Of a stretch of DNA of 64,000 nucleotides, positions 5,795 through 53,300 are shown piece by piece. Within the stretch, counting starts at the first letter, position 1. The number at the start of each line of letters is the position of its first letter. The notes below the pieces were generated by a model. The model saw only the letters and a program-made list of their open reading frames with translations. It was not told the origin of the DNA and did not search any database. Origin of the DNA: a virus (lineage: Duplodnaviria; Heunggongvirae; Uroviricota; Caudoviricetes). Both the position numbers and the translations under genes were made by a program. Location: IMG/VR virus record IMGVR_UViG_3300009008_000004, positions 18,004-82,003 of that record; one strand, written 5' to 3'.

Positions 5795-5801
5795 GTAGTG
5801 C

Positions 5802-5889: not shown

Positions 5890-6069
5890 ATGAAGATCAA
5901 CGCAACCAGGATGTTCACCGTACTCGTGGACCTGGATGAGTCTGAGGATGAAGTGGAACTAACCGCGAGGTATCATCTCCCCGAGCATTTAGAGATGTAC
6001 GCTCCTGAGATCGCCGCCCAGCTCTACACTATCGCCAACGAAATCTTCAACAGAGAGGAGTTCCACTAA
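5890..6069 (+). CDS. small acidic hypothetical protein (59 aa)
   Basis: hand-translated ORF MKINATRMFTVLVDLDESEDE...; TAATG overlap with next gene. Confidence 0.3.
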   Translation: MKINATRMFTVLVDLDESEDEVELTARYHLPEHLEMYAPEIAAQLYTIANEIFNREEFH

Positions 6070-6611: not shown

Positions 6612-7419
6612 AGACATACAGTGGTTCTCGTGGGATAACATTACCAATGTGGTTGGCGCGGGCTTCGCTAACCTCAAAGGTGTAGAGAAGCTCGAACTAC
6701 ACGGCGAGAAGGACATTAAAGGCACAACTTGCGACGGGGTAGTCGTGGATGAGGTAGCGTTCAACGACACATTTGTTCAGGCCTTAGAGGGGGAAGCAAA
6801 GGAAGAGAAAGCCAAGAACAACTCATTCGCTAAGGCAATGGCAGCCTCAGTGATGGAGGCGGTCAACGCGACCTCCCTCATGTCTAAGCTACTACCTGCG
6901 AAACCGATAAACTCTCAAAACGAGACTATAGAGTTGTGTAATCTGACCAACAAACTTGGTTACGGCTACGCAGATTTCACGGAAGAGGAGCGCGAGGCCC
7001 TCAAGATAGCACACGCCAATCGACCCATTGCAGACCTCAAGATGCTCGCAGACAATATTACGAAGTATAAGAAAATCTTCATCGGGAAGGTGGCAATATT
7101 GCATGAGCTCTTGAATAGCATCCCCGACTACGAAATACACCAGCACGAATTGGCAGCCTACTTCGACCATGGGTACTCAGTTGCATTGAAAGCATTAGCA
7201 AAAGACCCGGGGCTCCACTTCCCCGAAAGCCTGCACACGTATGGGCAGCTGGAGGTAGAGAGTGTTGATAAAGAGCAGGGGATAGCCACTATACTCTACG
7301 CCCCGCCGATCGCCGCCCAATATATTCAAGTGGGATTCACAATACCTGGTAAGAAGGAGACCAGACTACAAAAGATAAGGAGGAGAGTTGAAGAAGATCA
7401 GAAAAAAGCGAAAGGGTAG
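6586..7419 (+). CDS. hypothetical protein
   Basis: 277-aa ORF. Confidence 0.5.
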   Translation: MRKPRKKTKDIQWFSWDNITNVVGAGFANLKGVEKLELHGEKDIKGTTCDGVVVDEVAFNDTFVQALEGEAKEEKAKNNSFAKAMAASVMEAVNATSLMSKLLPAKPINSQNETIELCNLTNKLGYGYADFTEEEREALKIAHANRPIADLKMLADNITKYKKIFIGKVAILHELLNSIPDYEIHQHELAAYFDHGYSVALKALAKDPGLHFPESLHTYGQLEVESVDKEQGIATILYAPPIAAQYIQVGFTIPGKKETRLQKIRRRVEEDQKKAKG

Positions 7420-31079: not shown

Positions 31080-32942
31080 ATGCTCGCAATTCTTGTTTTG
31101 ATCACCATCGTAGTACTGTGCAGCATTGTCGTACTGTGGAAGTTCCGCTTCACCAAGAAGGAGTACACCGGGGAGACCACCATGGGTGGTTACGAGAAGT
31201 ACAAGACGGTGAAGCACCATCTGCCGCGCAAACTGCAGATCCTCGGAACTGCGCTTGCTATCATCCTATGGGCAGCAACATTTCTCGGAACGACTCTGTA
31301 CGTCGCACCGAAGACGGGGTACCTCGAGTACTCAAAGACATGGGGTGGTGGCTCCATGGGACCGGGGCAGATCGTTGCCTACGACGGAGAGAACGGCCCG
31401 CAAGCAGAAATTCTGCCGCCCGGACCCCACATCCTACCCCCGTGGCAATTCGAGGTCATCGAACGCTCCGACTTCGTAGTCCCTCCGGGCCAGATCGCAG
31501 AGCTGTCGACCAAGGACGGCGAACCACTATCCCCGGGTATGCGCTATGCACCTGAGTGGCAAGAGCTATCTGCCTTCCTCGATGCAGTAAACTTCCTCTC
31601 CTCTGGGAAAGGCTACAAAGGCGACCAAGTCACAATCCTCAAACCTGGTAACTGGAAGTTCAACCAGAACCTGTATGTCGCCGAACTCGCGAATGTTACC
31701 AACGTCCAGGTTGGGCACGTAGCAGTCGTCAAGGCAAACTACGGAGATGTCCCCACGCCGAAGACGATCAAGACCGCGAATATCATGGAAGTCGAGGTCC
31801 CGCTAACCAAGGAAGAGTTGGACATGGCCTACAAGGAGGCCATCGAGCTGGAGACCCAGCGGCAATTGGCTACAGGCATCCCCGCGGACCAGGTCAATGT
31901 AAAGCGGGAAGACGTAAAGGTCAAGAAGTCCAAAGTCATGCTCAAGGAAGTGGAGCAAGAAGTGGACGATCCCCTGGTAGACGTCGGCGAGCGTGGGATC
32001 TGGAGGAAGCCGCTGATCCCCGGAGAGTACTTCATGCACACGAAGGCGCATGAATTCAAGGATATTTTGACCATGAAGGTTCGCGTTGCCTACAGTCCTG
32101 AGGACAAGAAAGAACAGGACAACGTAGCGTTGGACCCAATCATCGTAAGGTCGAAAGATGGCTTTGAGTTCCCCGTCGACGTGCGCGTGGTCTACCATAT
32201 CGAACCCTCCGATGCACCTTGGGTGGTGGCAACCATCGGCGATGACGACTACGTGCTGGACAAAGTCATGACTCCTGCGGTTCGGTCAATCTTCCGAAAC
32301 CTCATGGGACGCTCGAAAGCACTCGACTTCGTAGCCGACCGCGAACTCAAGCAGCGGGAAGCAAAGTCACTGATTGCGAAAAAGTGCGCAGTGCACGGCG
32401 TCACTGTCGATGAAGTGCTGATCGGCCGGGTTGGTGATGATGCTACGCTGGGGGCGCTGATGAAAACGCAGAAGGACCGCGAGATTGCAGTCCAGCAGCA
32501 AGTGACCCTTGGGGTGCAGCAGAAGGCCGCTGAGCAGCAGAAAGAGCTCAGTAAGACCCAACAGGAGGCCGAGGAGGAAAAGTCCCTGGCAAAAGCCGCC
32601 TACGAGGTCCAGAGGGCACAACAGCGCAAGCTCCAGGCCCAAGAAGACGCGGATGCGGAGGCAATCAAGGTGAAGGTCGCAGCAGAGGCTGAAGCTGAGA
32701 AGATCCGAACGATCGCTCGCGCAGAAGCGGATGGCTACACAATGAAGGTCACCGCACTTGGGCGAGACACAGTCCGGACTATCGAGGCCCTGCGCATCGT
32801 TGGGGACGCCAATCTACGGATCACGCCAAACGTCATGGTATCTGGTGGAACCGAGGGAGTCGTCAGCGCACTCGCAGGAACACTCCTCAACAACTTCAAT
32901 GTCGCTGGGAAGGGCACAGGAATGCCCATACCCACCGAGTAG
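31080..32942 (+). CDS. SPFH/band-7 (flotillin-like) membrane protein
   Basis: N-terminal TM helices, SPFH-like core (FEFPVDVRVVYHIEP), long Ala/Glu/Gln-rich flotillin-type coiled coil. Confidence 0.65.
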   Translation: MLAILVLITIVVLCSIVVLWKFRFTKKEYTGETTMGGYEKYKTVKHHLPRKLQILGTALAIILWAATFLGTTLYVAPKTGYLEYSKTWGGGSMGPGQIVAYDGENGPQAEILPPGPHILPPWQFEVIERSDFVVPPGQIAELSTKDGEPLSPGMRYAPEWQELSAFLDAVNFLSSGKGYKGDQVTILKPGNWKFNQNLYVAELANVTNVQVGHVAVVKANYGDVPTPKTIKTANIMEVEVPLTKEELDMAYKEAIELETQRQLATGIPADQVNVKREDVKVKKSKVMLKEVEQEVDDPLVDVGERGIWRKPLIPGEYFMHTKAHEFKDILTMKVRVAYSPEDKKEQDNVALDPIIVRSKDGFEFPVDVRVVYHIEPSDAPWVVATIGDDDYVLDKVMTPAVRSIFRNLMGRSKALDFVADRELKQREAKSLIAKKCAVHGVTVDEVLIGRVGDDATLGALMKTQKDREIAVQQQVTLGVQQKAAEQQKELSKTQQEAEEEKSLAKAAYEVQRAQQRKLQAQEDADAEAIKVKVAAEAEAEKIRTIARAEADGYTMKVTALGRDTVRTIEALRIVGDANLRITPNVMVSGGTEGVVSALAGTLLNNFNVAGKGTGMPIPTE

Positions 32943-33164: not shown

Positions 33165-33299
33165 ATGGGAAAGGAAATGTCCACCTATAAGAAACTTATA
33201 CTCGCCGTGAAACTTGCGGCGACGTACTGGTTCTCGATGGGCAAGTTCCCGACCAAGGAGAAGGTGGCAAAGATGGTCCGGGAGAACAAGCGCGGGTAA
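33165..33299 (+). CDS. small hypothetical protein (44 aa)
   Basis: hand-translated ORF MGKEMSTYKKLILAVKLAATYWF...; below ORF-track cutoff. Confidence 0.25.
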   Translation: MGKEMSTYKKLILAVKLAATYWFSMGKFPTKEKVAKMVRENKRG

Positions 33300-33315
33300 A
33301 GCTACGGAGGTGTGT

Positions 33316-33969
33316 ATGCTACACGTTATATTACAACTACTGCTTGCTGTTGGACCAGCCGAAAAAAGCCAGGTGGAGGACCATGTCGTCCGCCAGGTGA
33401 TCGAGACCAACTTCGACTTTGACGAGACTATAGTCGAAGACATCTTCTATGTCGCAGAGAGGGCTGAGGCGGATCCGATGATCTTAGCCTCAGTAGTAAA
33501 CCGGGAAAGCAACGGCCACCGGCAAGCTACACGTTACTGCGCTAAATGGAAGAGGAAGGAGGACGGGAAGCGAACGTGTGTAAAAGAGAAGTCGTGCTAC
33601 ACAAAGTGCGCAACCCGTACGTTCAAAGATGCCAACGGCATCATCCAAAGTGTGTGGAAGAATCGCTTAGATGTAGGGCTCTGGCAACTACGAGACGCAC
33701 CATCCTGGTCGTGGGTAAGGTGGTACCGCAAAAACCATGACCCGAGCATCCCCAAGAAATGCGCGGTCCAGCGAGAGTGCAGCCGAGAGGCCATGGTGCA
33801 TATCGTGAAGTACCTGAAGAAGCGGGCAAGCTATAAGAATTCCCGCAGCTGCCGCAAACCCCTGCACATACCAGAGTACCAATGGATCGCCTACTGGAAC
33901 TGGTGCGGCTCCTACAACAACCACGTCAAAACAGCTATCCGGCTGTGGAAAGAAGCGCTCGCGATGTAA
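33316..33969 (+). CDS. SLT-like lytic transglycosylase (tentative)
   Basis: signal-like N-terminus, VVNRESNGHRQA (catalytic E-S) and DVGLWQL resembling SLT GLMQ motif; RBS GGAGG. Confidence 0.45.
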   Translation: MLHVILQLLLAVGPAEKSQVEDHVVRQVIETNFDFDETIVEDIFYVAERAEADPMILASVVNRESNGHRQATRYCAKWKRKEDGKRTCVKEKSCYTKCATRTFKDANGIIQSVWKNRLDVGLWQLRDAPSWSWVRWYRKNHDPSIPKKCAVQRECSREAMVHIVKYLKKRASYKNSRSCRKPLHIPEYQWIAYWNWCGSYNNHVKTAIRLWKEALAM

Positions 33970-34054
33970 ATCCCCTGCAGTATCGGGAATAAGAGAAGTC
34001 CAATAGGCCCACTAACGGGCAAAGTTCTGTAAACACAGAGAGGTGAAGTACGTC

Positions 34055-34279
34055 ATGACAGACAAGAAGACTATCAAGGTTACCGTGGCGAAGCTGGGTG
34101 CTGACGATGTGATCGTCGAGGTCCCGGATGGATCGGAAGTTTGCAAGGTAGCGGGGCAGTCCGGCCTCGATACCCGTGGTTGCGTGTTCCAGCTCGACGG
34201 CGAGACTGTCGAAGGGACCGAATTGGTTGGTGAGGGCCAGATCCTCCAACTCGTCCCCCGCGTCGAGGGAGGGGAATAA
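34055..34279 (+). CDS. ubiquitin-like beta-grasp protein (ThiS/MoaD-like) with C-terminal GG-E
   Basis: 74 aa, KVTVAKLG...VEVPDGSEV...GQILQLVPRVEGGE: size, alternation and penultimate Gly-Gly typical of Ubl precursors. Confidence 0.6.
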   Translation: MTDKKTIKVTVAKLGADDVIVEVPDGSEVCKVAGQSGLDTRGCVFQLDGETVEGTELVGEGQILQLVPRVEGGE

Positions 34280-34303
34280 GAACGTGCGGGTGGGCTGCTC
34301 AAA

Positions 34304-34320
34304 ATATCTCGATTAGATAA
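34304..34320. promoter_or_regulatory. quasi-palindromic operator-like site ATATCTCGATTAGATAA
   Basis: reverse complement of the 11234-11250 site; just upstream of E2-like gene RBS. Confidence 0.45.
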
Positions 34321-34351
34321 TTGGGCAGCCTGCCCAACAAGGAGGAACCAG

Positions 34352-35818
34352 GTGGCATACCAGTACAAAACCAACTACAAAGAGCTGGATGAAGCTCTCA
34401 CGACAGAGGCGGAAGTACTTGGGGCGTATATCATCCCCAGATTCGTTGACGTAAACGGGGCAGCCGACGTACACCACAAGCAAGCAGGGATCCCAAAAGC
34501 ACCTGCGGTATTCCTTGCTATCCAGCAGTATGACGTAGGAAATCCCATCTCAGAGGCGCGATTGCGTGTGCGGGGCGAAGACCTCACACTCACGAAGCCC
34601 ATACGCCCAACAAAGACGCCGGGGGTACCGATCGTTGTTAACAACGGCAAAAAACATGGTACCATAACCATCGGCTCGGTCTACGAGAACACGGTCTACC
34701 TCAACTTCAACCTGCCGAACTTTATCAACGCCAAGCGCTACACCAGAACTGCGCGGGGGAAAACGGGCAACACCGATGGCAGCTTCTTACCCAAACTATT
34801 CGCCCAGCACCTCCGTCCAGCATTCCAACTCGCGGCCAAGTTCGACGAAGGCTACAGCTACGCCGACGAAAAGAGAGTCCACGTCCAGAATGTGCTAAAG
34901 ACTCAAAAGACGGTCAAGAAAGAGCTTGAGCGCAAAATCTCCGTCCAAAGGAGGTCTATCGCCAACCACATCCAGGCAATCGAACAAGCAACCTCTAGGC
35001 TGGGAGAGATGCAACAGACGCTTGCCGGCCTCGAGGCCGACCAGGTGAAGCTTGCGAAAAAGGGGGAGACTCGCTTCCGCATCTTCAACAGCTTGTGGGG
35101 TAATGGCATTCACGATCTACGGATCGAGCCCACGCACATCATATTCCTCACAGCCCCGATCTTCTCCGAAGGGCTACCTTTCGGGCGCTTCTGGGTAACT
35201 ATCCCGCGGGGCGCAGACCGTCAGTACTCCAATATCACGATCAAGGCAGAAAACAACACCTACAACATAGGCGGATACGTACACCCACACATCCACGAGA
35301 ATGGGAGTATTTGCTGGGGCACAGCCGGCACGGTTATTGCGCAATTCCGCGGGCGGGGACAAGAGATCGAATGTATCCCCATTATCCTGGAGTACCTCCG
35401 GACCTACCATCATGACCACCAGTACCGCGCCATTGAGTACTGGGACGAGAAATTCGGTAAAAAGGGGGATAAAAAGCGAACTGACCGTGGTTCTCGCTGG
35501 CGTGAGTGTTACAGTAAGGTTACAGATCCGTACGAGTGTGCAGGATGCTTTGCCCCGGAATGCCCTTACCGGGACGGTGCCGAAGATCGTTGCTACAGGC
35601 AGCGGAACAAGAAGCAGGAGTACATTCGGTGTATGCAGTGTAAGGCCTGCAATAACTGGAAACACGCCAAAGCTGCCTGCCGGAAAAACCATCAGCAGGA
35701 CAGGAAGGATTGCGTGGGCTGCCCAGTAACATCATGTACCTACGCCGAGCCTGAGAAAGTGGCAAAAGCCCGCAAACCCAGACGGAAAACGGCTAAAGGG
35801 AGGACTAAGGCCGCATGA
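34352..35818 (+). CDS. E2 (UBC)-like ubiquitin-conjugating domain protein with N-terminal extension and Cys-rich C-terminus
   Basis: GTG start 7 nt after AAGGAGG; GGYVHPHIHENGSICWGTAG matches E2 HPN-x-x-x-x-G-x-I-C active-site signature; C-terminal 100 aa has 14 Cys (Zn-binding-like). Confidence 0.6.
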   Translation: MAYQYKTNYKELDEALTTEAEVLGAYIIPRFVDVNGAADVHHKQAGIPKAPAVFLAIQQYDVGNPISEARLRVRGEDLTLTKPIRPTKTPGVPIVVNNGKKHGTITIGSVYENTVYLNFNLPNFINAKRYTRTARGKTGNTDGSFLPKLFAQHLRPAFQLAAKFDEGYSYADEKRVHVQNVLKTQKTVKKELERKISVQRRSIANHIQAIEQATSRLGEMQQTLAGLEADQVKLAKKGETRFRIFNSLWGNGIHDLRIEPTHIIFLTAPIFSEGLPFGRFWVTIPRGADRQYSNITIKAENNTYNIGGYVHPHIHENGSICWGTAGTVIAQFRGRGQEIECIPIILEYLRTYHHDHQYRAIEYWDEKFGKKGDKKRTDRGSRWRECYSKVTDPYECAGCFAPECPYRDGAEDRCYRQRNKKQEYIRCMQCKACNNWKHAKAACRKNHQQDRKDCVGCPVTSCTYAEPEKVAKARKPRRKTAKGRTKAA

Positions 35819-36753
35819 AAATCAAAGTAGAACCAACAATTTTCCTTCTGCCAGAAGTCATCACGAAGATCGACATCTGGTGTAAGAAGGCCAAAGGGGA
35901 GGTCTCTGGCCTCGGCCTCATCGACATCGATGAAGATGGGGACATCTTTGTAACTGATGTCTACCTACTTGAGCAAAAGTCATCCAGTGGTAATACGGAC
36001 CTCGACCAGGAGGCTGTTGGTAACCTGATGACCGAACTCAGAAAGGAAGGCATCTCAATGTCCAAGCTCCGCTTCTGGTGGCATTCACATGGGAATGGTG
36101 GAGTATTTTGGTCGGGAACCGATGACAAGACCATCGATATTCTCGGCAAAGGCGGCTTTATGGTCTCCATGGTCACCAACAAGAAGCGGGAGAAGAAGTT
36201 CCGGATCGGGATGCAGAAACCGCTGAAACTGGACCTGGATGACGTTGGGTGGAGCCTCGCCTACTTCCCAGACGAAGAGTTTGAGAAGGAGTGCGAAAAG
36301 GAATTCGATGAGAAGGTCAAGGAGGTCACGACGATCACTACCTTCAAGGGTTCCGGAAACTACGGGCACAACCGCTCCGGCCGGGGCCGCTTCTACCATA
36401 ATGGGCGGTGGCACGACTCCTGGCCCGGTGGCAATGGGGGTTCCCGGACCGATTCTCCAGGAGGTGGGCTTCATCAGCCCGTCCCTTTTCAGGGAGAGGA
36501 CACAAGCCCCGGGACAAACAACCCACTCGAAATGCTCCCGTCGTGGGGAGAAATCCCCGGGACCGACGCAAGAAGTAGAGTCAGCGATCTCGTTGGTCAA
36601 GAGATTGAAGAGGTCGATACTCTCTGGCTTATTCTCAACGAAGCGGACTACACGGTAGCCGGGCTTGACCAACTCCGTAAGGCTAACAAGATCGAAACTG
36701 CGGAGCACAACCAAGCACGCGCCCAACTGAAGGAGCTCGGACTCGATGACTGA
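35815..36753 (+). CDS. JAB/MPN (JAMM) metallopeptidase
   Basis: E...WWHSHGNGGVFWSGTD = HxHx7Sx2D JAMM motif; ATGA coupling to E2-like gene. Confidence 0.8.
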   Translation: MKIKVEPTIFLLPEVITKIDIWCKKAKGEVSGLGLIDIDEDGDIFVTDVYLLEQKSSSGNTDLDQEAVGNLMTELRKEGISMSKLRFWWHSHGNGGVFWSGTDDKTIDILGKGGFMVSMVTNKKREKKFRIGMQKPLKLDLDDVGWSLAYFPDEEFEKECEKEFDEKVKEVTTITTFKGSGNYGHNRSGRGRFYHNGRWHDSWPGGNGGSRTDSPGGGLHQPVPFQGEDTSPGTNNPLEMLPSWGEIPGTDARSRVSDLVGQEIEEVDTLWLILNEADYTVAGLDQLRKANKIETAEHNQARAQLKELGLDD

Positions 36754-37411
36754 TATCGACAGGAATGCTATGTATCATCGGCAGCTCGATATCCTCGATC
36801 CGGAGAAGGCTGCCAAACTCAACGTCACTATTATCGGGGCCGGCGCTATCGGCTCCTTCACCGCACTCTCCCTGGCAAAGATCGGCGTAACCAACATCAC
36901 GGTCTACGACGATGACACGGTAGAGCTGCACAACATCCCGAACCAGTGGTACAGACTATCGGATGTCGGGAAGAAGAAGGTCATTGCCCTCCGCGAGATT
37001 ATCGAGCAGTTTACCGGGGTCAAGATTACCGCGATCCCGGAAAAGTTCGATAAGCAGAAGGCAAAAGGATTCGTCATCAGCGGAGTCGACTCCATGGATG
37101 CTCGCATTGGCATCTGGCAGAACCTCAAGATGCAGTTTCCACAGAGGTATCTGGATGCCCGCATGGGAGCGGAGGTGGGGGAGATACACATGGTGAACCC
37201 GGCCGACTTCGACAACGCCGAACAGTACGAGGAGAAGCACCTATTTCCCTCAACTGAGGCTGCTCCAGGAGCATGTACTGCCCGCAGCACAATGTACTGC
37301 GCCAGCGGGCTCGCTGCGATCATTGCGGCAAAGGTCAGCAACTTCATCAACCAGAGGCCCGACTCGGACCTGATCGTGGACTTCCGAAATATGAAGGTGT
37401 TGCCTGTTTGA
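36746..37411 (+). CDS. E1-like ThiF/MoeB-family adenylyltransferase
   Basis: VTIIGAGAIGS nucleotide-binding loop, YDDDTVELHNIPNQ E1 signature, 8-nt overlap with JAB gene. Confidence 0.8.
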   Translation: MTDIDRNAMYHRQLDILDPEKAAKLNVTIIGAGAIGSFTALSLAKIGVTNITVYDDDTVELHNIPNQWYRLSDVGKKKVIALREIIEQFTGVKITAIPEKFDKQKAKGFVISGVDSMDARIGIWQNLKMQFPQRYLDARMGAEVGEIHMVNPADFDNAEQYEEKHLFPSTEAAPGACTARSTMYCASGLAAIIAAKVSNFINQRPDSDLIVDFRNMKVLPV

Positions 37412-37465: not shown

Positions 37466-38950
37466 ATGGGAGAAAAACGAACCATCGCTGAAGAGGTGAA
37501 GGATCAATTCACGATCGACACCCTTCAAAAACGCACGGCCGAGCTACTCAATGAGTTGCATACGGCCAATGGACCAACGCATAAGAAAGCCCGGATGAAG
37601 CTCCGCTTCCTGACGTTGACGTCTGCCAAGACGTGCGAGCAGGTCAAAGTGGGGCCCACGGAGACCGTGAGAGTCGTACTCGACGCCGCGGATAAGTACC
37701 TCCAGAAGGACGGATTGTCCAAGGAGGAGCGCAACATGGTCCACAGCTTCAAATACGGACTGCGCCTATTCTCTGCTTTGCAGACTACAGGACGCTTAGA
37801 CTCCGACGGGCCTCGACTCGTCAAAGTGCGCAAAACCAAGACAACAACGAAGGCCGTAAGGCGTACGGCACCACAACCCACGGCAGCGGTTGTAACCCCC
37901 AAACCGAAACCGAAAGAAGCCCCCGGCCGCTATCCGGGCATCACTCGGGACGGTACCGTGCTTTCAGGAACCTCCTGGGTAGCCTTCGAATGGGCACGCG
38001 GAGTATTCGTTGCCCTCGATCCACGAGACCGCAGTCGTGTCGACATCTTTGCACAGCACAAGATGGCAGGGCTAAACTCCACAGGCGCACCGGTAATCTA
38101 CCTGCCCTGGTTGACAGGAGACACGAACCCCACGAGTACGATCACCACCCCGGTCTTACTTTCCGCGTTCCTCTGCGGGACAGGTGAGGAAATATCCCAT
38201 CTGAATAAAGACCCATACGACTTCCGCCGTACCAACCTGCGTATCAGCGGAACCCCTATCGACTTCTCCGACAACAACCTGTGCACGCAGTTCGCCCAGG
38301 GGCTGGTAACGGCGACACACTCCGTTGCTGCGCTGGATAAGATGATCACCGAGATCCGGGACACCACAAAACCCGTGACACTCGAGAAGGAGAAGAAAGA
38401 ATGGCTTGCTCTGGTAGAGCTGGCCGAAACTGAGCGAGACGCTACCAAGACACAGGTAGCAGACCTGGAACTCAAGCTCAAAGCTGCGGAGACTGCGGTC
38501 ACCAAAGCAAAGACCGCACTGAAAAGTGCCCGAGCCCGCCAGGATGCCCAGGGTGAGCTGCAGAATACTCTGCGGGAACTGCGATCATCCCTCAACGCCA
38601 AACGACAGGAGTGTGTAGCCCTCAAAGAGGAGCTTACCGAGATACGGGAAACAAGCAACAAGTTCGAGAAAGTCTCCAGTATGGAAGACGAACTCAGCGA
38701 AGCGCACACCTCAGTAGCAAACCTCGAGGTCCAGGTGGAACGCCTGACTAAGGCCAACAAGGAACTCGGGTCGCGGCTACGCAAGCGGGTGGGCGGGGAG
38801 AACGGTTCTATCCAAAAGGTAGCCGTGGTCCCGCCAGCGGTCGTTGACGCTGTCGACGTCATCCGTGATCTCCTCAACGGATCCTTGAAAGACGAGTACA
38901 AACTCCGCTTCATCGGGGATACCATCGCCAACCTGCAACTGCCGGAGTAA
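37466..38950 (+). CDS. hypothetical protein with long C-terminal coiled coil
   Basis: 494-aa ORF; RBS GGGAGAAG; heptad-rich 300-450 region. Confidence 0.55.
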   Translation: MGEKRTIAEEVKDQFTIDTLQKRTAELLNELHTANGPTHKKARMKLRFLTLTSAKTCEQVKVGPTETVRVVLDAADKYLQKDGLSKEERNMVHSFKYGLRLFSALQTTGRLDSDGPRLVKVRKTKTTTKAVRRTAPQPTAAVVTPKPKPKEAPGRYPGITRDGTVLSGTSWVAFEWARGVFVALDPRDRSRVDIFAQHKMAGLNSTGAPVIYLPWLTGDTNPTSTITTPVLLSAFLCGTGEEISHLNKDPYDFRRTNLRISGTPIDFSDNNLCTQFAQGLVTATHSVAALDKMITEIRDTTKPVTLEKEKKEWLALVELAETERDATKTQVADLELKLKAAETAVTKAKTALKSARARQDAQGELQNTLRELRSSLNAKRQECVALKEELTEIRETSNKFEKVSSMEDELSEAHTSVANLEVQVERLTKANKELGSRLRKRVGGENGSIQKVAVVPPAVVDAVDVIRDLLNGSLKDEYKLRFIGDTIANLQLPE

Positions 38951-38954
38951 CATC

Positions 38955-40295
38955 ATGAAACCGACCCGTCTTTGGTCGACATGGAGTGTCTCGAAATTGG
39001 TGCGGGTCCTGGACTGCCCACGATCCTTTGACCTTGTCTACATCAGACAGACGAAGGGTCCCGAAAGCCCGTACAAGGTTTTCGGCTCGGCGGTCCACAC
39101 CATGCTCGAGAGATTCTTCAAAGTGAACTACCAAACAGCTGAGTCCTTCGCCAAGGCGGGCGTCGGTTTCTGGATGGGGGTCGTAGACGGAAGTCACGGC
39201 CCCTCTTCTTTTAGTGCCGAGGTAAGCAAACCAGTCATTATTGACTTCAGTAACGTGAAGGCACCAATGATGTTCCTGGGCATGATGAAGAAGATACTGC
39301 GGATCTTCTACAACGATAATTTGGAGTATAGAGATGGTCCAAAACCTACGCCAGAGGTGGAAAAAAATTTCACGCTTGATCTGGAAGGCAAAAAGATTCG
39401 AGGTATCCTGGATCGACTCCAGCCCGACCATCCGGATCTTGCCTGGAACCGGCGAGACGGGGAGCTCGGCACACGGGTGGGCCACCATATCATCGACTAC
39501 AAGCCATACGTACTCGACCAGTTCGGGCTCCACCTTGACCTGCAACTCACCATGTACAATCTGTGGTACATCCAGCAGTACGGCAGAGACCCCCTCTCAC
39601 TTGGAATCTACAATTACAAAGAGCCCATCGACAGAGTTGTATGCACACCTCCCCGCACCCAGAAGGATTTCGCCGACCTCGCCCTCAAGTTTCAGGAGGC
39701 CTCAGAGTATGTCATTGGCGTGCTCACCGGCGACATGTCGAGGCCCTCCGCAATAACCGGGTTCCGGCATTTCATCCAAGATGACCTGATGACCGGGGTA
39801 ATGACGCCCAAGAAGGTAATGGGTGGTCCCGGGTGTAAGTTCTGTGAGTTCAAGGAGAATTGCCTGAAGATTCACAAAGGGGAGCTACCGACCACGCGGG
39901 AATACGTCAAGAAGAAGTACGAACTTCCAAGCTCCCCACTCCTCCCCTTCGCGGTAAAACATAAGGGAGCGGACCGACCGCGTACCCGCGCGAATCTGCG
40001 GAGAGTGCTTGCCCGCAGAAGGGTAGAGCCTCTGCCCACCAAACCGGAGGAGGTCTATCTCCGCCTACAACTGAAGGTGGATAGGACATCCGACAAAACC
40101 GACCCAACCAAGTATGGGCGCTGCCCCCACTGCGGGTTCGCCCTCCAGAAGAACGGGAAGTGTAACAACTGCCTCTCCTGGTATAGCAAGGATGGCAACT
40201 TCCTCCCCGAGAAATCATGGAAGTCCGTCTCCGACAGGATCAAAAGGAGGAAAGAAAAGGATGAGCAGGATGTGGGACCAGGTAATAGCGGATGA
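38955..40295 (+). CDS. PD-(D/E)xK nuclease, Cas4/RecB-like with Fe-S cysteines and C-terminal Zn ribbon
   Basis: N-terminal Cys (LDCPRSF), ...DRLQPD...IIDYKPY (D-x-K), GGPGCKFCEFKENC three-Cys cluster: Cas4-family arrangement; C-terminal CPHCG...CNNC. Confidence 0.6.
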   Translation: MKPTRLWSTWSVSKLVRVLDCPRSFDLVYIRQTKGPESPYKVFGSAVHTMLERFFKVNYQTAESFAKAGVGFWMGVVDGSHGPSSFSAEVSKPVIIDFSNVKAPMMFLGMMKKILRIFYNDNLEYRDGPKPTPEVEKNFTLDLEGKKIRGILDRLQPDHPDLAWNRRDGELGTRVGHHIIDYKPYVLDQFGLHLDLQLTMYNLWYIQQYGRDPLSLGIYNYKEPIDRVVCTPPRTQKDFADLALKFQEASEYVIGVLTGDMSRPSAITGFRHFIQDDLMTGVMTPKKVMGGPGCKFCEFKENCLKIHKGELPTTREYVKKKYELPSSPLLPFAVKHKGADRPRTRANLRRVLARRRVEPLPTKPEEVYLRLQLKVDRTSDKTDPTKYGRCPHCGFALQKNGKCNNCLSWYSKDGNFLPEKSWKSVSDRIKRRKEKDEQDVGPGNSG

Positions 40296-40926
40296 GTATA
40301 ACCTCCGCCAACAAGTAGCAGACCACACGAACAACACCCTTAACTCCGTCTGTAAGGAATGCGATTCCCCCGTCTGCTGTATGCAGATGTTTGAGGTTAC
40401 CCCGTGGGATGCGCTCCTTATCATCAGGACACATCCGCAAGCGGTAACTCGGCTTATACCCAAGCTGGAAGAGCAGGCTGAACTGGAGAAGAAGTACGCC
40501 GGCGAGATGGAGGAGTACATCCATAACGAACGGCATCCCTGCGCCTTTCTCACTGCCGACGGCAAATGCGAAATATACGCCATGCGCCCCATCATTTGCG
40601 CTATGATGCATATTCGCGAAGGAGAGAAGCGCTGCGGAGACATGGACGCCAAAGAGAAGCATGCAGTTGGGCTCCTCCCGGAGCTCACTGTACGATACCT
40701 CTCCACAACACACAAAGTGTGGGAAGGTGTAGACGGACAACAGGGAATGCGGCACTTCCTACTGGAGAACGGGATGGAGGATATACCTTTTGGATTTATC
40801 CCGGGCCTTGCCACAGCCATACTCGCTGTCGGCGAAGGCAAGAAACCTCCTATGTTCTCCGAGCGGGACATGCTCATGACCGAACTTCGTATGCGGCAAA
40901 AGGGGTACATGAAAGACGCCCCATGA
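40261..40926 (+). CDS. YkgJ-family Zn/Fe-chelating domain protein (second copy)
   Basis: CKECDSPVCC...CAFLTADGKCEIYAMRPIIC. Confidence 0.55.
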   Translation: MSRMWDQVIADEYNLRQQVADHTNNTLNSVCKECDSPVCCMQMFEVTPWDALLIIRTHPQAVTRLIPKLEEQAELEKKYAGEMEEYIHNERHPCAFLTADGKCEIYAMRPIICAMMHIREGEKRCGDMDAKEKHAVGLLPELTVRYLSTTHKVWEGVDGQQGMRHFLLENGMEDIPFGFIPGLATAILAVGEGKKPPMFSERDMLMTELRMRQKGYMKDAP

Positions 40927-42796: not shown

Positions 42797-43090
42797 ATGC
42801 AACAGTTGCTTCCTCAAATCCGGCAGTTTGCCGCAGACAGGACAAGGGAGGCTGCGAGCGCTCTAAATGCTCTTGGCCGTGTCGTCAAAGTTCTCCAGGT
42901 GCTCGACTCCGAATACCAGGAGACGTACCAAACCCTTACGGTACGAGTCGATTCCGGGAAGTACGAGGGGCAAGTCCTGCCCGTCGTACAGATCCAGCTG
43001 GATGGTAAAGGGGTTACCATTTGGGCTACCCACAACGAAAACCCCAAGAAATTTCGCGTCACAGGCGAATTGGAGGTCACACAAGCATGA
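42797..43090 (+). CDS. hypothetical protein
   Basis: ATG 8 nt after GGAGG; 97 aa. Confidence 0.5.
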   Translation: MQQLLPQIRQFAADRTREAASALNALGRVVKVLQVLDSEYQETYQTLTVRVDSGKYEGQVLPVVQIQLDGKGVTIWATHNENPKKFRVTGELEVTQA

Positions 43091-44016
43091 GCAAGAAAAC
43101 CGTACACCTGGTCCTGGAGGATATCCGGTTGGATTCCGATGGTATGTCCAATTGCCGATCGGCTATGGAGGGTATCGAGGAGCTGGCACAGGACATCGTA
43201 GATGAGGGATGCCTGCTCAACCCCATTGGGGTATGGCAGCCCCCGGGAAAGGACTACTACGTCTTGAACTATGGCTACCGTAGGCTCCATGCGCTGAAGT
43301 GGCTCAAAGAACACCGACCCAAAGATTTCATCTCCCTTGACTTTGAGGAGGCTGGGAAGATCCCATGTGCCGCATACGGTGGGGATTTGAACGCCGCATT
43401 GATCAGGAACCTCTCTGAGAACCTGAAGCGGAAGCGGGTAAACCCGGCAGATCTGGTTACCCGGGTCGGGTACCTGCACGAAGTCCGGGGGATGACGGAG
43501 ACACTAATCGCGAAGACCATTGGGATTGCCCAGTCCCAAGTCTCAGGTATGCTGGGAGTCCACCTTGGGTGCTCCAAGGCAGTTATTGGTGCCCTCCGGC
43601 AGAAGCTCATCAACCTGTCCAACGCCAAGAAGTTCAGCAAGCTCCCACACGAGCAGCAGGATGAATTGCTGGAGAAGCTGCTTGAGCAGGACCCTGAGCA
43701 GGCAAAGAAGATCAAGAAGCTTTTGGCCAAGAAGACCGAGGCCTCCGTGCGTCCGGGTGTAAAGACTCTGAAGTCTACTCTTGGGCAGGTAGCTGCACGT
43801 AAGGAAGAGCGGGACAAGGAGTACCGCGATGGAGTCATTGCCGGCCTCAAGTTTGCATTGGGTATCATTGATAAGGTCGAATGGCTGTTTGCTCCGGCAC
43901 ACGCAGTTCCGGAAGATGCAGCTCCTCAGGCCCCGACGAGACTCGTTCGTGCGATGAAACCGAAGAAGAAGTTCGCTGGGAAAGCGCAAGAAAAGGAGAC
44001 CACCAAACCAAAGTGA
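43087..44016 (+). CDS. ParB/Sulfiredoxin-fold (ParB N-terminal domain) protein
   Basis: NPIGVWQ...YYVLNYGYRRLHALKWL = ParB GxxRxxA box; HTH-like middle; Lys-rich C-terminus; ATGA overlap. Confidence 0.6.
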   Translation: MSKKTVHLVLEDIRLDSDGMSNCRSAMEGIEELAQDIVDEGCLLNPIGVWQPPGKDYYVLNYGYRRLHALKWLKEHRPKDFISLDFEEAGKIPCAAYGGDLNAALIRNLSENLKRKRVNPADLVTRVGYLHEVRGMTETLIAKTIGIAQSQVSGMLGVHLGCSKAVIGALRQKLINLSNAKKFSKLPHEQQDELLEKLLEQDPEQAKKIKKLLAKKTEASVRPGVKTLKSTLGQVAARKEERDKEYRDGVIAGLKFALGIIDKVEWLFAPAHAVPEDAAPQAPTRLVRAMKPKKKFAGKAQEKETTKPK

Positions 44017-50320: not shown

Positions 50321-53300
50321 CTACACTACCAGCGTCACGTTGATCTGGTTGGCCGGGTAGTACGGCGTCACCGAGATATCCACATACAGCGTATCCGGCT
50401 GCTGTGAGTCGATGTAGATGTTGGTGATCGTGATCTTCGATACGATTGTCCCAGTCATCCCACCGATTACAGAGCTAACCAAAATGCTCACGTAGTCAAG
50501 GAAATTCCTTGTCAGATTGAACTTCCCAGCCAACCCCTGCATAGAGACCCGGAGCCGCTTCGTGATGTAGTCCAGCACATGGGTGATGGACGCTTCCCTG
50601 GTTTGCAGGGAGGTGACATCGGTAGTCAGCTGATGCCGAGTTTCAACTGCGGAGTAGCTGTCCTGCTGGATCAACCACCAAACACCGCCGCCGGCCGCGG
50701 TATCCATGTCGGAAGCTGACAGGAGATCCCAGGAGCCAGAGACACTCTCAATACCCGCAAGAGTAAGTCCGGTAAAGGACTGCTGCGGGGCAGTCGAAGC
50801 GCACAACCCAGCAAGGGCTGCACAAGTGTACATCCCATGGATAGAGGTCGAGGACCCACTTTCCAGGTAGGTAGCAGACGAGGGCTGCACGTACCGAACA
50901 CGGCGGTATCCGTACGCCGTCGCCTTTGAAGCAAGAGCAGCTGCGAGCTGCGCACGCCCCGTCGAGGTTGTGGTATCGATGGAGGCCTGCCTGACATAGA
51001 GAGTAACTGTCTCGCCATCAGCATCCCAAGCCGGGCTGTCTCCACCGGCCTCAACCATAGTAGTTGCGTAGAAGTTATCATCGTTACCGGTGGTCCCCGG
51101 GCCGGAGCCTGCGGAGAAACCGGTGATGCGGCACTTCAACACGTTGCCGGCCTTAATCTCAGACACGGAGTACTTGAACGGATCGTCCGTACGAGTGATG
51201 TAAAGGCCGTTTTCAATGGTAACTGCTCCCGAAATAGGGACAGTCGCACCATTTGCGTCGGTCTTGCCAGCCAGCACAGCAGCAATATTGAAACCGGTGG
51301 CCGCATCGATTGTGACCTCAAAAGAGGTACCAGCAATCTTGTTGAACGGAGCCGTGGTATTCGGTGCCGAGCCACAAGTAGTCGGGGTGCGCTCTGTAGG
51401 TGAATCTTCACAAACGAAGCACACACGCTCGCTCTTTCCGGTAGTCGGGTCTGCCATCGCAGTTACGTGGGCATCAAGCAGCTCATGGACTGCAGGGCTA
51501 TCCGACATCGGAGCAATGGCGTAAACATCGGCAGACTGCAGGAAGTCGAAGGCCTTGGCGTAGGCGCTCGTGGTTCCATAAGCCATCAAAGTCGAGGTTT
51601 CTTCGACACCAAATGCCTTCACCTGGATATTCGGTGCGTTCAGCATCGCAAGGTACACACCGAGGGCCAGCGGGTTCGAAGAATTGACGGGACCAATTGC
51701 AGTCTCCATCTCAGCGTAGGTCGAGTAAATCTGCACAGCCGGGCTTGCACCCGCGGCAGTTATGTCGGTACGCAGGGCAGTGTATCCAGCAGCCAGCTGC
51801 GCAGTGCTGCTCTGGTACTCAACACCACCACCATCTCGGTTAAGCCCGCCCTTCAGGTAGATCAGTTGGTTGGTAGTATCAAACCAGACCTCAGACCGCG
51901 GCTTATCAGAAGTAGTGTTACCCTGGTACTGCCCATCGGTAGCCGCACCAGTAATACCTTGAGAGGAGATGTACCAGGTGCCAAGAGCAGTACCTACTGT
52001 GGCGTTTTGCTCTGTCAGGTCGAGGTATGCGTTGGTCAGTGTCTGAGCGCCAACTATGCCGTCGTTCCAGGTATAGTTAGCGAAGGCAGAGATTGTTCCA
52101 ACGTAACTTCCGGCGTTATACAACTTATCACCGACCTGCACGCGCAGGGGGTCCCCGCGGAAGATCTTACCGGTGAAGTCTGTTGTAGACGTGGTGTACG
52201 GCCCACGGAACAGCATGTTCGCGGCATCTCCACCGAACTCAATTCCCGCATCGTAACCGGCGTAGTTACCGCACATGGTTGCGTCCAAGGTACACTTCAA
52301 AACTTTTTGGCCCGTAGTGAGCAAACGGTAGTCTACCGTATAGGGCCCAGCACCAAGAGAAGCAGCCAAGGTAATCGTCCCAGTCGCTGGGTTGATCCCA
52401 GATACCGTTGAGATAGTTCCCCCCAACGTACCGGATCCTCGGGGAACTGTGTCCCCGGTAATCTGCGCAAGAATAGTCGCCCCACCAACCCGAGCAGCCT
52501 CAACATACGTTAGAGCCGCGACATCGGCCGAAGCGTCTACGAGGGAAGTTGTAGTTAGCGTAGCTGATGTACTGCCATACATCTCTGTAGCATATGGAAT
52601 ATCGGCAGCAGCTTCGGCTGTGAACGGGGAACCGCCGGTCACCAACGCATTAAGGGCTGCAAGCAATCCCGCCTCATTCGTCATGTCAGCCGCATCAAGC
52701 GTATCCGACGTAACCGGTCCCCCATTCACCCTAACAGTAATTGTCTTATTGATCAGGGGTGAGGACGCGCCGTAGAATGACGCCGCGGTGAGCGGGCATT
52801 CCCCAAGTACCGTGGGGTAGGTTTGAGTTGCGCTTGTCGCGGCGTAGTTATATGGATCCGCCCCAAAGTTTAGGCCGTAGATCTTGCCGCTCAAGTCATC
52901 AGAAAGTAAAGCAGATGTAGAACCGTCCAAGTAGCTAATGTTAGTGCTCCCGACAGTCGTGTTAGGTCCAAGAAACGGCTCAATGGTCGCATTCGCCTTC
53001 ATGGCAGTATCAAGGGCGGCCGCCTTGCAGATGTCGGGAACAGCTACTGTCCAAGCCGCGCCACCTGCCCCGCAAACCGCTGGGCAGTATTCAATTTCAA
53101 TTTCTACCGGGAAGGCCGCCCCAGCTACGGGATTCTTTACATTCGGGAGAATATAAGACCCGGGCGATACCGTAAATCCTACGTCAGCCGCGACGCTCGA
53201 GATAATCGTAACGGCCCCACCGGTAAGGGTAGTCAGAGTAAAGACGGGACCAGCGCCTGTAAGGATATACCAACCATTATAGGCTTCGCCCGGGCCCGAC

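Follow-up and report, generated by a model that had tools for sequence, protein, structure and literature searches.

We conclude that the 488-residue protein encoded at positions 34352–35818 is probably the E2 of a four-gene conjugation operon for a ubiquitin-like protein (Ubl) on a large tailed phage, a judgement which includes the pathway proposed for it below. All positions refer to the window, the whole stretch of 64,000 nucleotides which was analysed. The operon occupies 34043–37411 and encodes, in this order, a Ubl, the E2, a JAB/JAMM peptidase and a ThiF-type E1. Taken together, we read it as a Bil-like Ubl conjugation system of a type that none of the family libraries searched names. 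Domain identities, active-site conservation and operon conservation are established computationally. The initial annotation of this DNA had recognised the E2 but missed the flanking Ubl, JAB peptidase and E1, which are the most informative fact about it.

The E2 gene and the layout of its product

The E2 gene lies on the plus strand (34352–35818, stop codon included). No other start codon stands between an upstream stop and its GTG start. By direct reading, 6 nt separate a Shine–Dalgarno sequence, AAGGAGG (34339–34345, plus strand), from the GTG, and the methionine starts of homologues align with the N-terminus at this codon. The start proposed at the outset, a GTG behind AAGGAGG, is thereby borne out. 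Judged from its sequence, the product is a real but very divergent E2 with extra domains. It comprises five parts: an N-terminal α/β domain, a coiled coil of about 100 residues, the UBC core, three Cys4 repeats and a basic tail. The AF2 model used here was built from 150 sequences (mean pLDDT 85.3) and supersedes an earlier run with four sequences (pLDDT 58.9, C-terminus below 50).

The N-terminal α/β domain spans residues 1–145 in the AF2 model (34352–34786, plus strand). Averaged over blocks of 10 residues, its pLDDT lies between 53 and 94; most blocks exceed about 70, and the low stretches are around residues 31–50 and 61–70. An invariant basic loop, TRTARGKTG.T.G, is located at about residues 130–143. 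In the wider E2 family, conservation within this domain is limited to the last ~40 residues. The domain was also considered as a second, inactive UBC/UEV copy; this was rejected at an hhalign probability of 0.3%, from an alignment of doubtful quality.

The following segment (residues 146–248; 34787–35095, plus strand) is helical in the AF2 model, with helices at 146–167, 171–229 and 231–248 and pLDDT values of about 87–97. In a PDB profile search, coiled-coil proteins match this region. A coiled coil had been postulated from the sequence, and these helices indeed form a long coiled-coil-like segment. The last of them leads into the position of UBC helix α1, and residues 238–250 align with the canonical E2 helix α1 in hhalign.

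At the other end of the protein, the Lys/Arg-rich tail described initially after the Cys-rich C-terminus is present (residues 463–488; 35738–35818 with the stop codon, plus strand). It is predicted to be disordered: block mean pLDDT falls from ~70 (461–470) to 54 and then 47, and values below 50 are flagged solely for residues 483–488. The basic character of the tail is restricted to four family members (P0001–P0004), the median net tail charge of the family being −4.

UBC core and active site

The UBC core comprises residues 249–372 (35096–35467, plus strand). A structure prediction had been set beforehand as a check for a UBC fold around the HPH...C motif, and the fold is seen. The order is an N-terminal helix, an antiparallel sheet of four to five strands, the loop with the active site and further helices. 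The motif, placed at the outset near residue 310 of a 488-residue E2-like protein, is H311-P312-H313-x7-C321-W-G323 (35282–35320, plus strand). Residues 311–323 read HPHIHENGSICWG, and the spacing is that of HPN-x7-Cys85 in UBE2D2.

Conservation of this site was followed in an alignment of 105 sequences. H311, P312 and C321 are invariant, and conservation reaches 90% or more at G278, H313, G323, L349 and Y352. The family-wide consensus is GY.HPH[VI]..G..C[WLF]GN, and in several short family members the motif cysteine is the sole cysteine of the protein. The third position of the triad is histidine in nearly all sequences, with asparagine in P0085 and tyrosine in P0134. The change from asparagine to histidine at this position is a departure from the canonical HPN. 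In sequence terms, the HPH...C motif is conserved far beyond chance. Profile comparison with human E2s by hhalign gave a probability of 94.9% (E 4.2e-8, 109 columns), against 0.14% for a reversed control. In this alignment HPH lies opposite HPN and C321 opposite Cys85. C321 is the predicted thioester cysteine. The sole support for thioester formation is that Ubl and E1 share an operon with the E2 in about 30 loci.

Curated E2 models (Pfam UQ_con, Prok-E2_A–E) do not reach this family: the 488-residue protein has no Pfam match at E ≤ 0.1, and UQ_con matches one of the 105 relatives, at 0.0024 only. A conserved histidine after C321 was not found in the family alignment.

With canonical E2s of the UBE2D2/UBE2L3 type, the protein shares the UBC fold and an active-site loop in which x7 again separates the triad from the catalytic cysteine (HPNINSNGSIC in UBE2D2, HPHIHENGSIC in the window E2). 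The helix after the cysteine also aligns, and the ‘NPxxP’-like loop aligns with YN..PY. In contrast, asparagine is replaced by histidine, sequence identity is only about 15%, and the protein lies below detection by Pfam UQ_con. Furthermore, the C-terminal E2 helices are replaced by the Cys4 module, helix α1 continues from the coiled coil, and the protein is partnered by a minimal E1 that lacks a UFD.

The cysteine-rich C-terminal module

Three tandem Cys4 repeats (35507–35737, plus strand) follow the core: C386/396/399/404, C414/427/430/433 and C443/454/457/462. The module had been credited with 14 cysteines. This is the total of the whole protein; the module holds 12, and the remaining two are the catalytic C321 and C341. 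The Cys/His pairs noted at the same time find little to build on, as H438 and H447 are the only histidines in the module and there are almost no histidine ligand candidates. The repeat pattern in the 488-residue protein is C-x9-12-C-x2-C-x2-4-C, and all 12 cysteines are invariant in close relatives. Among 74 proteins, a C-x8-9-C-x2-C-x4-C unit is present in two copies in 17, three in 26 and four in 28. Copy number thus changes in whole four-cysteine units, as would be anticipated if each repeat formed a metal site of its own. The operon is retained by family members which lack a Cys-rich module altogether.

Disorder of this region, raised at the outset as an argument against a module, is not what AF2 predicts. 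The module is modelled as helical and ordered, with block mean pLDDT values of 88–97 up to about residue 440, 82 for 441–450 and ~70 for 451–470. On this prediction it looks unlike a zinc ribbon or a RING. The earlier suggestion of a zinc-ribbon, RING or treble-clef fold gains no clear support, given tandem Cys4 repeats, predicted helical, whose only PDB match in the profile search is a weak one to a LIM domain (E 0.002). No Pfam family matches the module consistently in the 105 relatives (zf-RING_4 matches one, at 0.0013), and no significant structural or sequence relative of the module was found. A DNA-binding role, also proposed initially, fares poorly: module and tail are basic in a small subfamily only, and most of the family is acidic there, so that general DNA binding is unsupported family-wide.

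We predict that the Cys4 module binds metal, and favour zinc. Alternatively, the module could bind three [4Fe-4S] clusters, in which case the E2 would be redox- or oxygen-responsive. Each repeat contains exactly four cysteines, a C-x2-C-x2-4-C triad and one remote cysteine, and a proline often follows the fourth (76 of 240 units). The module is also helical like the cluster domains of EndoIII and MutY, whose cluster motif is C-x6-C-x2-C-x5-C. Nevertheless, we regard iron–sulfur clusters as rather unlikely: besides the weak LIM zinc-finger match, the few Pfam matches among family members are zinc-finger models, similarly spaced Cys4 zinc sites are common, and the surroundings showed no Fe-S assembly or radical-SAM context.

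Ubl, JAB peptidase, E1 and the intergenic hairpin

The Ubl precursor (34043–34279, plus strand) is a 78-residue ThiS/MoaD-type β-grasp protein ending in PRVEGG-E. The Gly-Gly codons are located at 34268–34273, and one extra residue precedes the stop. In orthologues PRVEGG is followed by one varying residue (E, R or C), and wider relatives end in [RKN][VI][EQK]GG plus 0–3 residues. Pfam ThiS/SAMP2 models match the orthologues of three loci (L009, L011, L012); the window protein itself has no Pfam match.

The 72-nt spacer between the Ubl and E2 genes contains an RNA hairpin (34288–34335, plus strand) with a 15-bp lower stem and a 5-bp apical stem. Its folding energy is −32.1 kcal/mol (z −4.26), and none of 200 shuffled sequences was as stable. 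The site at 34304–34320 taken initially for a palindromic operator is a 5-bp inverted repeat (TATCT/AGATA) which forms the apical stem, and is better read as the tip of this strong hairpin; TTGGGCAGNCTGCCCAA occurs once in the window. The loci L001, L003 and L011 have GC-rich hairpins at the corresponding place, significant in L011 (z −5.4) and marginally in L003 (z −2.1) only. Because no U-tract follows, the hairpin is not an intrinsic terminator. Downstream, the E2 stop and the JAB start overlap in ATGA (35815–35818), and the first 8 nt of the E1 gene lie within the JAB gene.

The JAB/JAMM metallopeptidase (35815–36753, plus strand; 312 residues) has the motif E29...H90-S-H92-x7-S100-x2-D103 in full. 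Behind it come a Gly-rich linker and, at the C-terminus, a conserved helix. The Pfam Prok-JAB match of the protein is weak (E 0.0077). The motif residues are invariant in orthologues, and H.H-x7-S-x2-D was found in all seven relatives checked. A JAB HMM matches 19 of the 21 MAG loci. From its sequence and context, the predicted function is that of a Ubl-processing and deconjugating enzyme.

The E1-like adenylating enzyme (36746–37411, plus strand; 221 residues) has a ThiF/MoeB fold with the nucleotide loop GAGAIG. It consists of a single ThiF domain (Pfam ThiF, 4.5e-21), and its only cysteines, C177 and C185, are both conserved and stand eight residues apart. In PADLOC it matches only the E1 part of CBASS E1–E2 models, up to 3.4e-14. 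NCBIfam scores fall below the cutoffs (ThiF 71.4 against 159 bits, MoeB 41 against 266–376), as does PRTRC_ThiF (54.6 against 144.75 bits). A ParB-HTH protein is encoded 5.6 kb downstream (43021–44016); no further PRTRC protein was found besides it.

These matches raise the question of sulfur chemistry, as ThiF-like enzymes also serve sulfur transfer, which counts against the conjugation reading. The operon could encode a sulfur-carrier pathway of the ThiS/ThiF, MoaD/MoeB or TtuB/TtuC type and tag no proteins. The E1-adenylated β-grasp protein would become a thiocarboxylate, and the Cys-rich ‘E2’ would be a persulfide or Fe-S relay serving a thiolation, for instance of a nucleotide or cofactor. 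The spacing of the Cys4 repeats resembles some [4Fe-4S] motifs. ThiF and MoeB are the best family matches of the E1, some Ubl relatives match ThiS/SAMP2, cultured-phage homologues are annotated as ‘thiamine biosynthesis protein’, and JAMM peptidases accompany sulfur-carrier Ubls too (Iyer 2006, PMC1779556). However, we consider this pathway highly improbable. The ThiF and MoeB scores are far under their cutoffs, and the partner has a UBC fold with E2 active-site geometry, a fold known for transthiolation and aminolysis and not for sulfur insertion. Moreover, rhodanese, cysteine desulfurase, PP-loop ATPase and thiazole or molybdopterin synthase are absent among the neighbouring genes scanned, and the operon is kept by members which have no Cys-rich module.

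Distribution of the operon

The operon recurs in about 30 independent loci on phage contigs and in bacterial MAGs. The same gene order is found in eight loci reached via protein look-ups and, where flanks are long enough, is repeated in 21 loci from an independent degenerate DNA pattern. The E2 matches 1336 cluster representatives at E ≤ 1e-3 and 166 at E ≤ 1e-10.

Models from Pfam, NCBIfam, PADLOC and PHROG do not cover the E2, and a single-sequence search against Pfam, PADLOC, PHROGs, NCBIfam and PDB sequences returned no match. A tblastn search of 50,697 phage records with the E2 was likewise empty. A word-indexed protein search recovered four to five E2 relatives even with a profile query, and none with a Cys-module profile. 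A description of the operon or the E2 architecture was not found in the literature searched, and an earlier one from the Aravind laboratory is possible. The architecture had seemed undescribed. This holds insofar as no family covers the E2 and no paper was found, but the number of representatives shows that it is not a one-off.

The phage origin of the window is read from few hallmarks, a point against our main conclusion. They are a sheath-like C-terminus, AAA ATPase and exonuclease families of phage type, and the density of genes. The phage cassette sits inside a block with PD-(D/E)XK exonuclease and ParB-like genes, and phage relatives are syntenic, with the same flanking genes though their E2s are only 39–42% identical.

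Relation to known conjugation systems

The closest arrangement is that of BilABCD, which we compared as Type I (group 6d of Iyer 2006) and Type II (CEHH/6C). Both systems have the same four components in the same order (Ubl, E2, JAB DUB, E1), a Ubl with a conserved glycine and a short removable extension, and no E3 gene (PMC10557695). Both also occur in mobile or defence contexts. In Bil, BilC trims the residues past the conserved glycine of BilA before E1 adenylation, and an E3 is unneeded (PMC10557695). However, BilB E2s lack the HPN histidine and have a cysteine with a downstream histidine, in Type II as a CEHH motif (PMC1779556, PMC10557695). Compared with these published descriptions, the window E2 is set apart in keeping HP[H/N]-x7-Cys. 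It is also about three times larger, with its N-terminal domain, coiled coil and Cys4 repeats. The E1 of Bil, BilD, has several domains, namely inactive and active adenylation domains and a catalytic CYS domain, besides a Cys4 zinc site (PMC10557695), whereas the window E1 is a 221-residue ThiF-like core with two cysteines. Lastly, the window copy is phage-encoded, and the defence-profile library PADLOC recognises neither its Ubl nor its E2 nor its JAB peptidase.

The likeness to Bil invites another reading of the same biochemistry: as a third Bil-like type, the operon would serve anti-phage defence, and the phage would carry it as cargo for superinfection exclusion and outside its own replication programme. 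Its gene order is that of a proven defence system. Copies are also found on bacterial MAG contigs of 130–380 kb. In L018, from Myxococcales, the cassette adjoins a SIR2-STALD gene and an IS21 helper (the SIR2-STALD neighbour being seen in one of six large MAG contigs examined), L037 has a copy next to a NOV_C protein, and the L038 copy lies among metabolic genes. The whole cassette is tandemly duplicated in L028 and the E2 in L013 and L026, duplications which are typical of conflict systems. We find this possible though doubtful: the synteny in the phage lineage, at the E2 divergence given above, looks inherited and not recently acquired, a related Ubl/JAB/ThiF block lies in the replication modules of cultured crAss-like and FpV4 phages, and the silence of the PADLOC models on Ubl, E2 and JAB also weighs against it.

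Type II CBASS Cap2/Cap3 shares an E1 adenylation domain, E2 chemistry and a JAB partner with the window operon. Cap2 is a single E1–E2 fusion with a CD-NTase as ‘Ubl’, whereas the window encodes separate E1 and E2 proteins and a dedicated Ubl. A CD-NTase or CBASS effector was not found near the operon.

In cultured phages, the block of Xanthomonas jumbo phage PhiXhv-12 comprises a 140-residue protein ending in SGG, an 892-residue protein and a short ThiF adjoining the latter. The 892-residue protein has a coiled coil, an IHPHM...GSLCLG motif and Cys-rich ends, and matches the UBC HMM at E 1.2e-5. In crAss001 (gp79–gp76) and Flavobacterium phage FpV4 (gp53–gp50), a Ubl-like protein, a 420–444-residue GYMHSH...C protein, a JAB and a ThiF follow in the same order. 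The middle proteins score E 0.095 and 0.52 against the UBC HMM, which is not significant; crAss001 gp78 and FpV4 gp52 are leads only for this reason. Erwinia phage Ep032 is matched only by its ThiF-like gene. The genes of these blocks are annotated as hypothetical or as ‘thiamine biosynthesis protein’.

Proposed mechanism

Each biochemical step of the conjugation pathway, together with the metal, the target and the use against the host, rival phages or the phage's own proteins, is what we infer from these comparisons. First, the JAB peptidase would expose the Gly-Gly of the Ubl precursor (78 residues) by trimming the one residue that follows it. The minimal ThiF-type E1 would then adenylate the exposed glycine and may carry the Ubl on the conserved C177 or C185. 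Cys321 of the E2, which sits in a UBC fold retaining the canonical HP[N/H]-x7-Cys site, would next receive the Ubl in thioester linkage. Against the pathway stands the size of the E1, which is far below that of BilD or of eukaryotic E1s. As the E1 has neither a separate Cys domain nor a UFD, transfer from E1 to E2 is without structural precedent here.

The E2 would move the Ubl onto lysines of target proteins without a separate E3. Its additional parts may replace the E3: the coiled coil would oligomerise, and the N-terminal domain and the three Cys4 repeats would dock partner enzymes or the target. These roles of the extra domains are conjecture throughout. Among eukaryotic proteins, UBE2O and BIRC6 are E2/E3 hybrids in which the UBC domain lies inside a much larger protein of more than 1000 residues. 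Their other domains, including coiled coils, recognise substrates, so that no separate E3 is needed. The window E2 can be likened to them in concept, an analogy with no homology beyond the UBC core. Finally, the JAB peptidase could also reverse the modification, and the hairpin between Ubl and E2 and the overlapping E2, JAB and E1 genes may serve to yield much Ubl and little enzyme.

Implications

That bacteria conjugate Ubls at all, and do so in antiviral defence, is a recent finding (CBASS Cap2, Bil, Bub). The operon adds a type which keeps the canonical E2 active-site signature missing from Bil enzymes, pairs it with the smallest possible E1, and is encoded by phages as well as bacteria. 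The ‘thiamine biosynthesis protein ThiF’ annotations of phage genomes are probably wrong. Related uncharacterised genes in cultured phages make the question experimentally tractable, the clearest case being the 892-residue protein next to ThiF in PhiXhv-12, with Ep032, crAss001 and FpV4 as weaker candidates.

If the pathway works as proposed, it would raise the question of what a bacterial virus gains from tagging proteins, would show how an E2 chooses its targets without an E3, and would bear on the origin of the eukaryotic E2 fold and the HPN motif. A bolder version, which we hold to be speculative and on balance improbable, is that of a self-contained Ubl pathway of large phages and some bacteria whose HPN–Cys E2 is its own E3 and which the phage uses offensively. 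Host or rival-phage proteins, for example replication or recombination factors, would be tagged, and the coiled coil and the variable Cys4 metal (possibly Fe-S) array would give the E2 its E3 function. Were this true, it would be the first virus-driven ‘ubiquitination’ in prokaryotes, by a family closer to eukaryotic E2s than the Bil, CBASS and Bub enzymes.

Catalytic core of the E2 protein

Profile comparisons and structural models indicate that the E2 protein adopts a ubiquitin-conjugating (UBC) fold around its active-site motif. As proposed in the initial annotation, its gene (34352-35818, + strand) encodes 488 residues from a GTG, which is the first start codon past an in-frame stop, and the N-terminus aligns with the methionine starts of homologues. 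The AAGGAGG upstream of this codon is present at 34339-34345, with a spacing of 6 nt. Single-sequence searches of Pfam, PADLOC, PHROGs, NCBIfam and PDB sequences gave no match for the protein, and a word-indexed protein database returned only four E2 proteins, sharing 39-42% identity. A profile built from these four was run exhaustively against 1.84 billion cluster representatives and retrieved 1336 proteins at E <= 1e-3, 166 of them at E <= 1e-10. Most matches extend over the coiled coil, the surroundings of the motif and the Cys-rich part.

The motif G-Y-x-H-P-H-[VI]-x3-5-G-x-x-C-[WLF]-G-N occurs in nearly all of the best 150 matches; residues 311-323 of the window E2 read HPHIHENGSICWG. In an alignment of 105 sequences, H311, P312 and C321 are invariant, and conservation is 90% or higher at G278, H313, G323, L349 and Y352. 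Several short members possess one cysteine each, that of the motif, which is the pattern expected of a catalytic residue.

The UBC fold that had been suggested around the HPH...C motif is borne out by profile alignments with human E2s and by structure prediction. The alignment of the 105-sequence profile with human UBE2D2 spans 115 columns and pairs HPN with HPH and Cys85 with C321 (probability 83%, E 8.9e-6). A domain profile (residues 236-372, 147 sequences) gave 94.9% (E 4.2e-8) when set against four aligned human E2s, compared with 0.14% for the reversed-sequence control. Once coiled coils were set aside, UBE2L3 was the top match in a PDB profile search. AlphaFold2 performed poorly with four sequences (pLDDT 58.9) but reached a mean pLDDT of 85.3 with 150, and in a viral structure library the best matches were uncharacterised phage proteins and giant-virus E2s. 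The active-site spacing is that of canonical E2s (HPNINSNGSIC in UBE2D2, HPHIHENGSIC in the window E2); the sole departure is the replacement of the triad asparagine by histidine. The family falls under the detection limit of the Pfam UQ_con and Prok-E2 models.

Accessory domains and the cysteine repeats

Additional regions surround the UBC core, which is placed at residues 249-372 by profile and structure comparisons. An α/β domain (1-145) with an invariant basic loop (~130-143) precedes long helices (146-248), the last of which becomes UBC helix α-1 in the AlphaFold2 model. The Cys-rich module (386-462), delimited by repeat analysis across the family, is followed by a basic tail (463-488) predicted to be disordered. 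The N-terminal domain was also considered as a second UBC copy; this was rejected on a profile-profile comparison (hhalign probability 0.3%), itself of doubtful alignment quality.

The 14 cysteines previously ascribed to the module are those of the whole protein: 12 lie in the module, and the remaining two are the motif residue C321 and C341. The 12 form three tandem repeats, C386-x9-C396-x2-C399-x4-C404, C414-x12-C427-x2-C430-x2-C433 and C443-x10-C454-x2-C457-x4-C462, separated by about nine residues. Among 74 proteins, 17 contain two such Cys4 units, 26 three and 28 four; shorter family members dispense with the module and still keep the operon. Copy number thus varies by whole sets of four cysteines, a pattern in favour of one putative metal site per unit. 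By default we read the putative metal as zinc, and we keep [4Fe-4S] binding as a rival, the cysteine spacing resembling some [4Fe-4S] motifs. The module is predicted helical (block mean pLDDT ~88-97 up to residue 440, 82 for 441-450 and ~70 for 451-470), its sole match among PDB sequences is a weak one to LIM (E 0.002), and no Pfam model matches consistently across relatives. For these reasons it is not assigned to RING, zinc ribbon or treble clef, the folds evoked earlier. A basic module and tail are confined to the small subfamily of the window (28 K+R versus 13 D+E), whereas most family members are acidic there (~9 K+R versus 29 D+E; median tail charge -4), which leaves the suggested DNA-binding function unsupported as a general role.

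A conserved four-gene operon

The E2 gene is accompanied by three partners. Upstream, at 34043-34279, lies a ThiS-like Ubl of 78 residues ending in PRVEGG-E; its orthologues end in PRVEGG plus one variable residue, and more distant Ubls match Pfam ThiS/SAMP2. Downstream, a 312-residue JAB peptidase (35815-36753), whose gene overlaps the E2 stop through ATGA, displays the full JAMM motif (E29, H90-S-H92, S100, D103). It overlaps by 8 nt the gene for a ThiF-type E1 of 221 residues (36746-37411), which carries GAGAIG and the conserved cysteines C177 and C185. Past its catalytic domain the JAB protein has an extension of ~140 residues, in which a low-complexity linker rich in Gly, Arg and Asn (~175-240) leads to a conserved C-terminal helix (W..ILNEA.Y...LD); this helix might dock on the E2 coiled coil.

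The order Ubl, E2, JAB, E1 is retained in all informative loci, among them three close relatives and more distant members, some of which lack the Cys module. Searching a one-genome-per-species collection with a degenerate DNA pattern built on the active-site motif yielded 21 further loci. Each of the 21 is a genuine member of the family (UBC HMM E <= 1e-25), the gene order is unchanged wherever flanks are long enough, and their Ubls end in PK[VI]EGG plus 0-2 residues. A gammaproteobacterial MAG contig (L028, 11-6456) harbors two complete E2-JAB-E1-Ubl cassettes in tandem, and two other loci (L026, 4222-6965; L013, 7001-9192) each have two adjoining E2 paralogues. Such duplication is typical of conflict systems.

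In the 72-nt spacer between the Ubl and E2 genes, the stretch from the Ubl stop codon to the Shine-Dalgarno sequence of E2 is filled by a strong RNA hairpin (34288-34335; dG -32 kcal/mol, z -4.3) with no U-tract on its 3′ side. The operator-like palindrome reported at 34304-34320 reduces to a 5-bp inverted repeat. GC-rich hairpins occupy the equivalent position in three related loci (L001, L003, L011). Together with the translationally coupled E2, JAB and E1 genes, the hairpin fits an arrangement giving more Ubl than enzymes, and it may set the Ubl-to-enzyme expression ratio.

Distribution in phages and bacteria

Several features suggest that the window belongs to a large tailed phage: a sheath-like protein, AAA ATPase and exonuclease families of phage type, a peptidoglycan-binding protein and ORFs that are densely packed and co-directional. 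A 182-kb contig carries an identical E2 protein. No cultured phage is close to the window (best protein identities ~30%), and most of the ORFs tested matched no family in PHROGs or Pfam (8 out of 10 in one scan); the element belongs to a very poorly charted lineage. The sheath match itself is confined to the last ~200 residues of a 1400-aa ORF at 50321-54523 (-) (tail sheath phrog_279, E 1e-12; Pfam TssC, 2e-5). The product is unusually large for a sheath-like protein, and its N-terminal ~1200 residues are without assignment.

In relatives on 22-156-kb contigs the cassette is syntenic and is followed by the same three genes as in the window (37466-40926), directly downstream of E1: a 494-aa protein with an SMC-like coiled coil in its C-terminal half, a 446-aa Cas4/exonuclease-like PD-(D/E)XK nuclease whose C-terminus holds a CxxC...CxxC cluster, and a 270-aa CxxCxxCC protein (PF03692). 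Beyond them lies a ParB-HTH protein (43021-44016). These downstream genes are possible partners or targets of the cassette. Upstream, relatives also conserve a 620-aa SPFH/Band 7 protein (31080-32942) and an ORF of ~211-251 aa (33214-33969) with a lytic-transglycosylase-like E-S...GLWQ motif and no family match.

The 21 genome loci are all MAGs, labelled in their records as Myxococcales or Anaeromyxobacteraceae (10), Gammaproteobacteria (4), Planctomycetota (2), Zixibacteria, Chloroflexota and Deltaproteobacteria (one each) and unclassified bacterial bins (two). Several lie on contigs of 130-380 kb. In two Myxococcales MAGs the cassette adjoins a SIR2-STALD gene and an IS21 IstB helper (L018, 729-3784, 382-kb contig) or a 1212-aa NOV_C protein (L037, 46-3684, 234-kb contig), which suggests that the bacterial copies have a defence-island-like setting; one further MAG copy sits among metabolic genes. 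Found on both the phage-like window and bacterial contigs, the operon lives in bacteria and phages.

Short ThiF genes of the same kind exist in cultured phages, annotated as 'thiamine biosynthesis protein'. In the 227-kb Xanthomonas jumbo phage PhiXhv-12 (L016, PV764601.1, region 2781-6657), such a gene lies directly downstream of one for an 892-aa 'hypothetical protein' that combines a coiled coil with the E2-like motif IHPHM...GSLCLG (UBC HMM E 1.2e-5) and is very rich in Cys at both termini; a nearby 140-aa protein ends in ...ASGG. This cultured phage might serve as a model for experiments. In Erwinia phage Ep032 the match was confined to its ThiF-like gene (H53). Within their replication modules, crAss-like phages (crAss001 gp79-gp76, L017) and Flavobacterium FpV4-like phages (FpV4 gp53-gp50, L015) have a four-gene block in the same order: a Ubl-like, beta-grasp-like protein that bears ...KSGG/KSGA internally and ends in a long tail, a protein of 420-444 aa with GYMHSH-x13-16-C, a JAB metalloprotease and a ThiF. 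The 420-444-aa proteins gave no significant match to the UBC HMM; the block may represent a highly diverged form of the operon.

Relation to known conjugation systems

Gene order and logic are those of BilABCD, a bacterial antiviral Ubl conjugation system. However, as published, the HPN histidine is missing from Bil E2s (PMC1779556), which rely on a Cys-His pair (PMC10557695), and the Bil E1 is a multidomain protein with a Cys4 zinc site, in contrast to the 221-residue E1 of the window. PADLOC gave no match for the window Ubl, E2 or JAB. By these tests of E2 motif, E1 architecture and PADLOC models, the operon is Bil-like, yet outside Bil. CBASS is ruled out because E1 and E2 are separate genes and no CD-NTase was found nearby, and a ThiF, MoeB or PRTRC equivalog is ruled out for the window E1 since every score is under its cutoff. 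A literature search, covering the relevant literature in part, found no description of the operon or of the E2 architecture. We consider it a Bil-like Ubl conjugation system of phages and bacteria, new as a variant, in which a minimal E1 is paired with a multidomain E2 that has the canonical motif.

Proposed mechanism and biological role

In Bil, the JAB enzyme BilC trims residues past the conserved Ubl glycine, only then does E1 adenylate the Ubl, and the latter reaches targets via E1 and E2 with no E3 (PMC10557695; 10.1101/2023.09.04.556158). Homology allows a similar scheme to be laid over the domain identities, conserved motif and conserved operon observed here. JAB would remove E78 of the Ubl, E1 would adenylate G77 and perhaps carry the Ubl on C177 or C185, C321 of E2 would receive it as a thioester, and E2 would then promote aminolysis onto target lysines. 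The coiled coil of E2 may serve oligomerisation, and its N-terminal domain and Cys4 repeats may dock E1 or the target. For its carriers, such a system could act in phage offence, in phage self-regulation, or in defence and superinfection exclusion.
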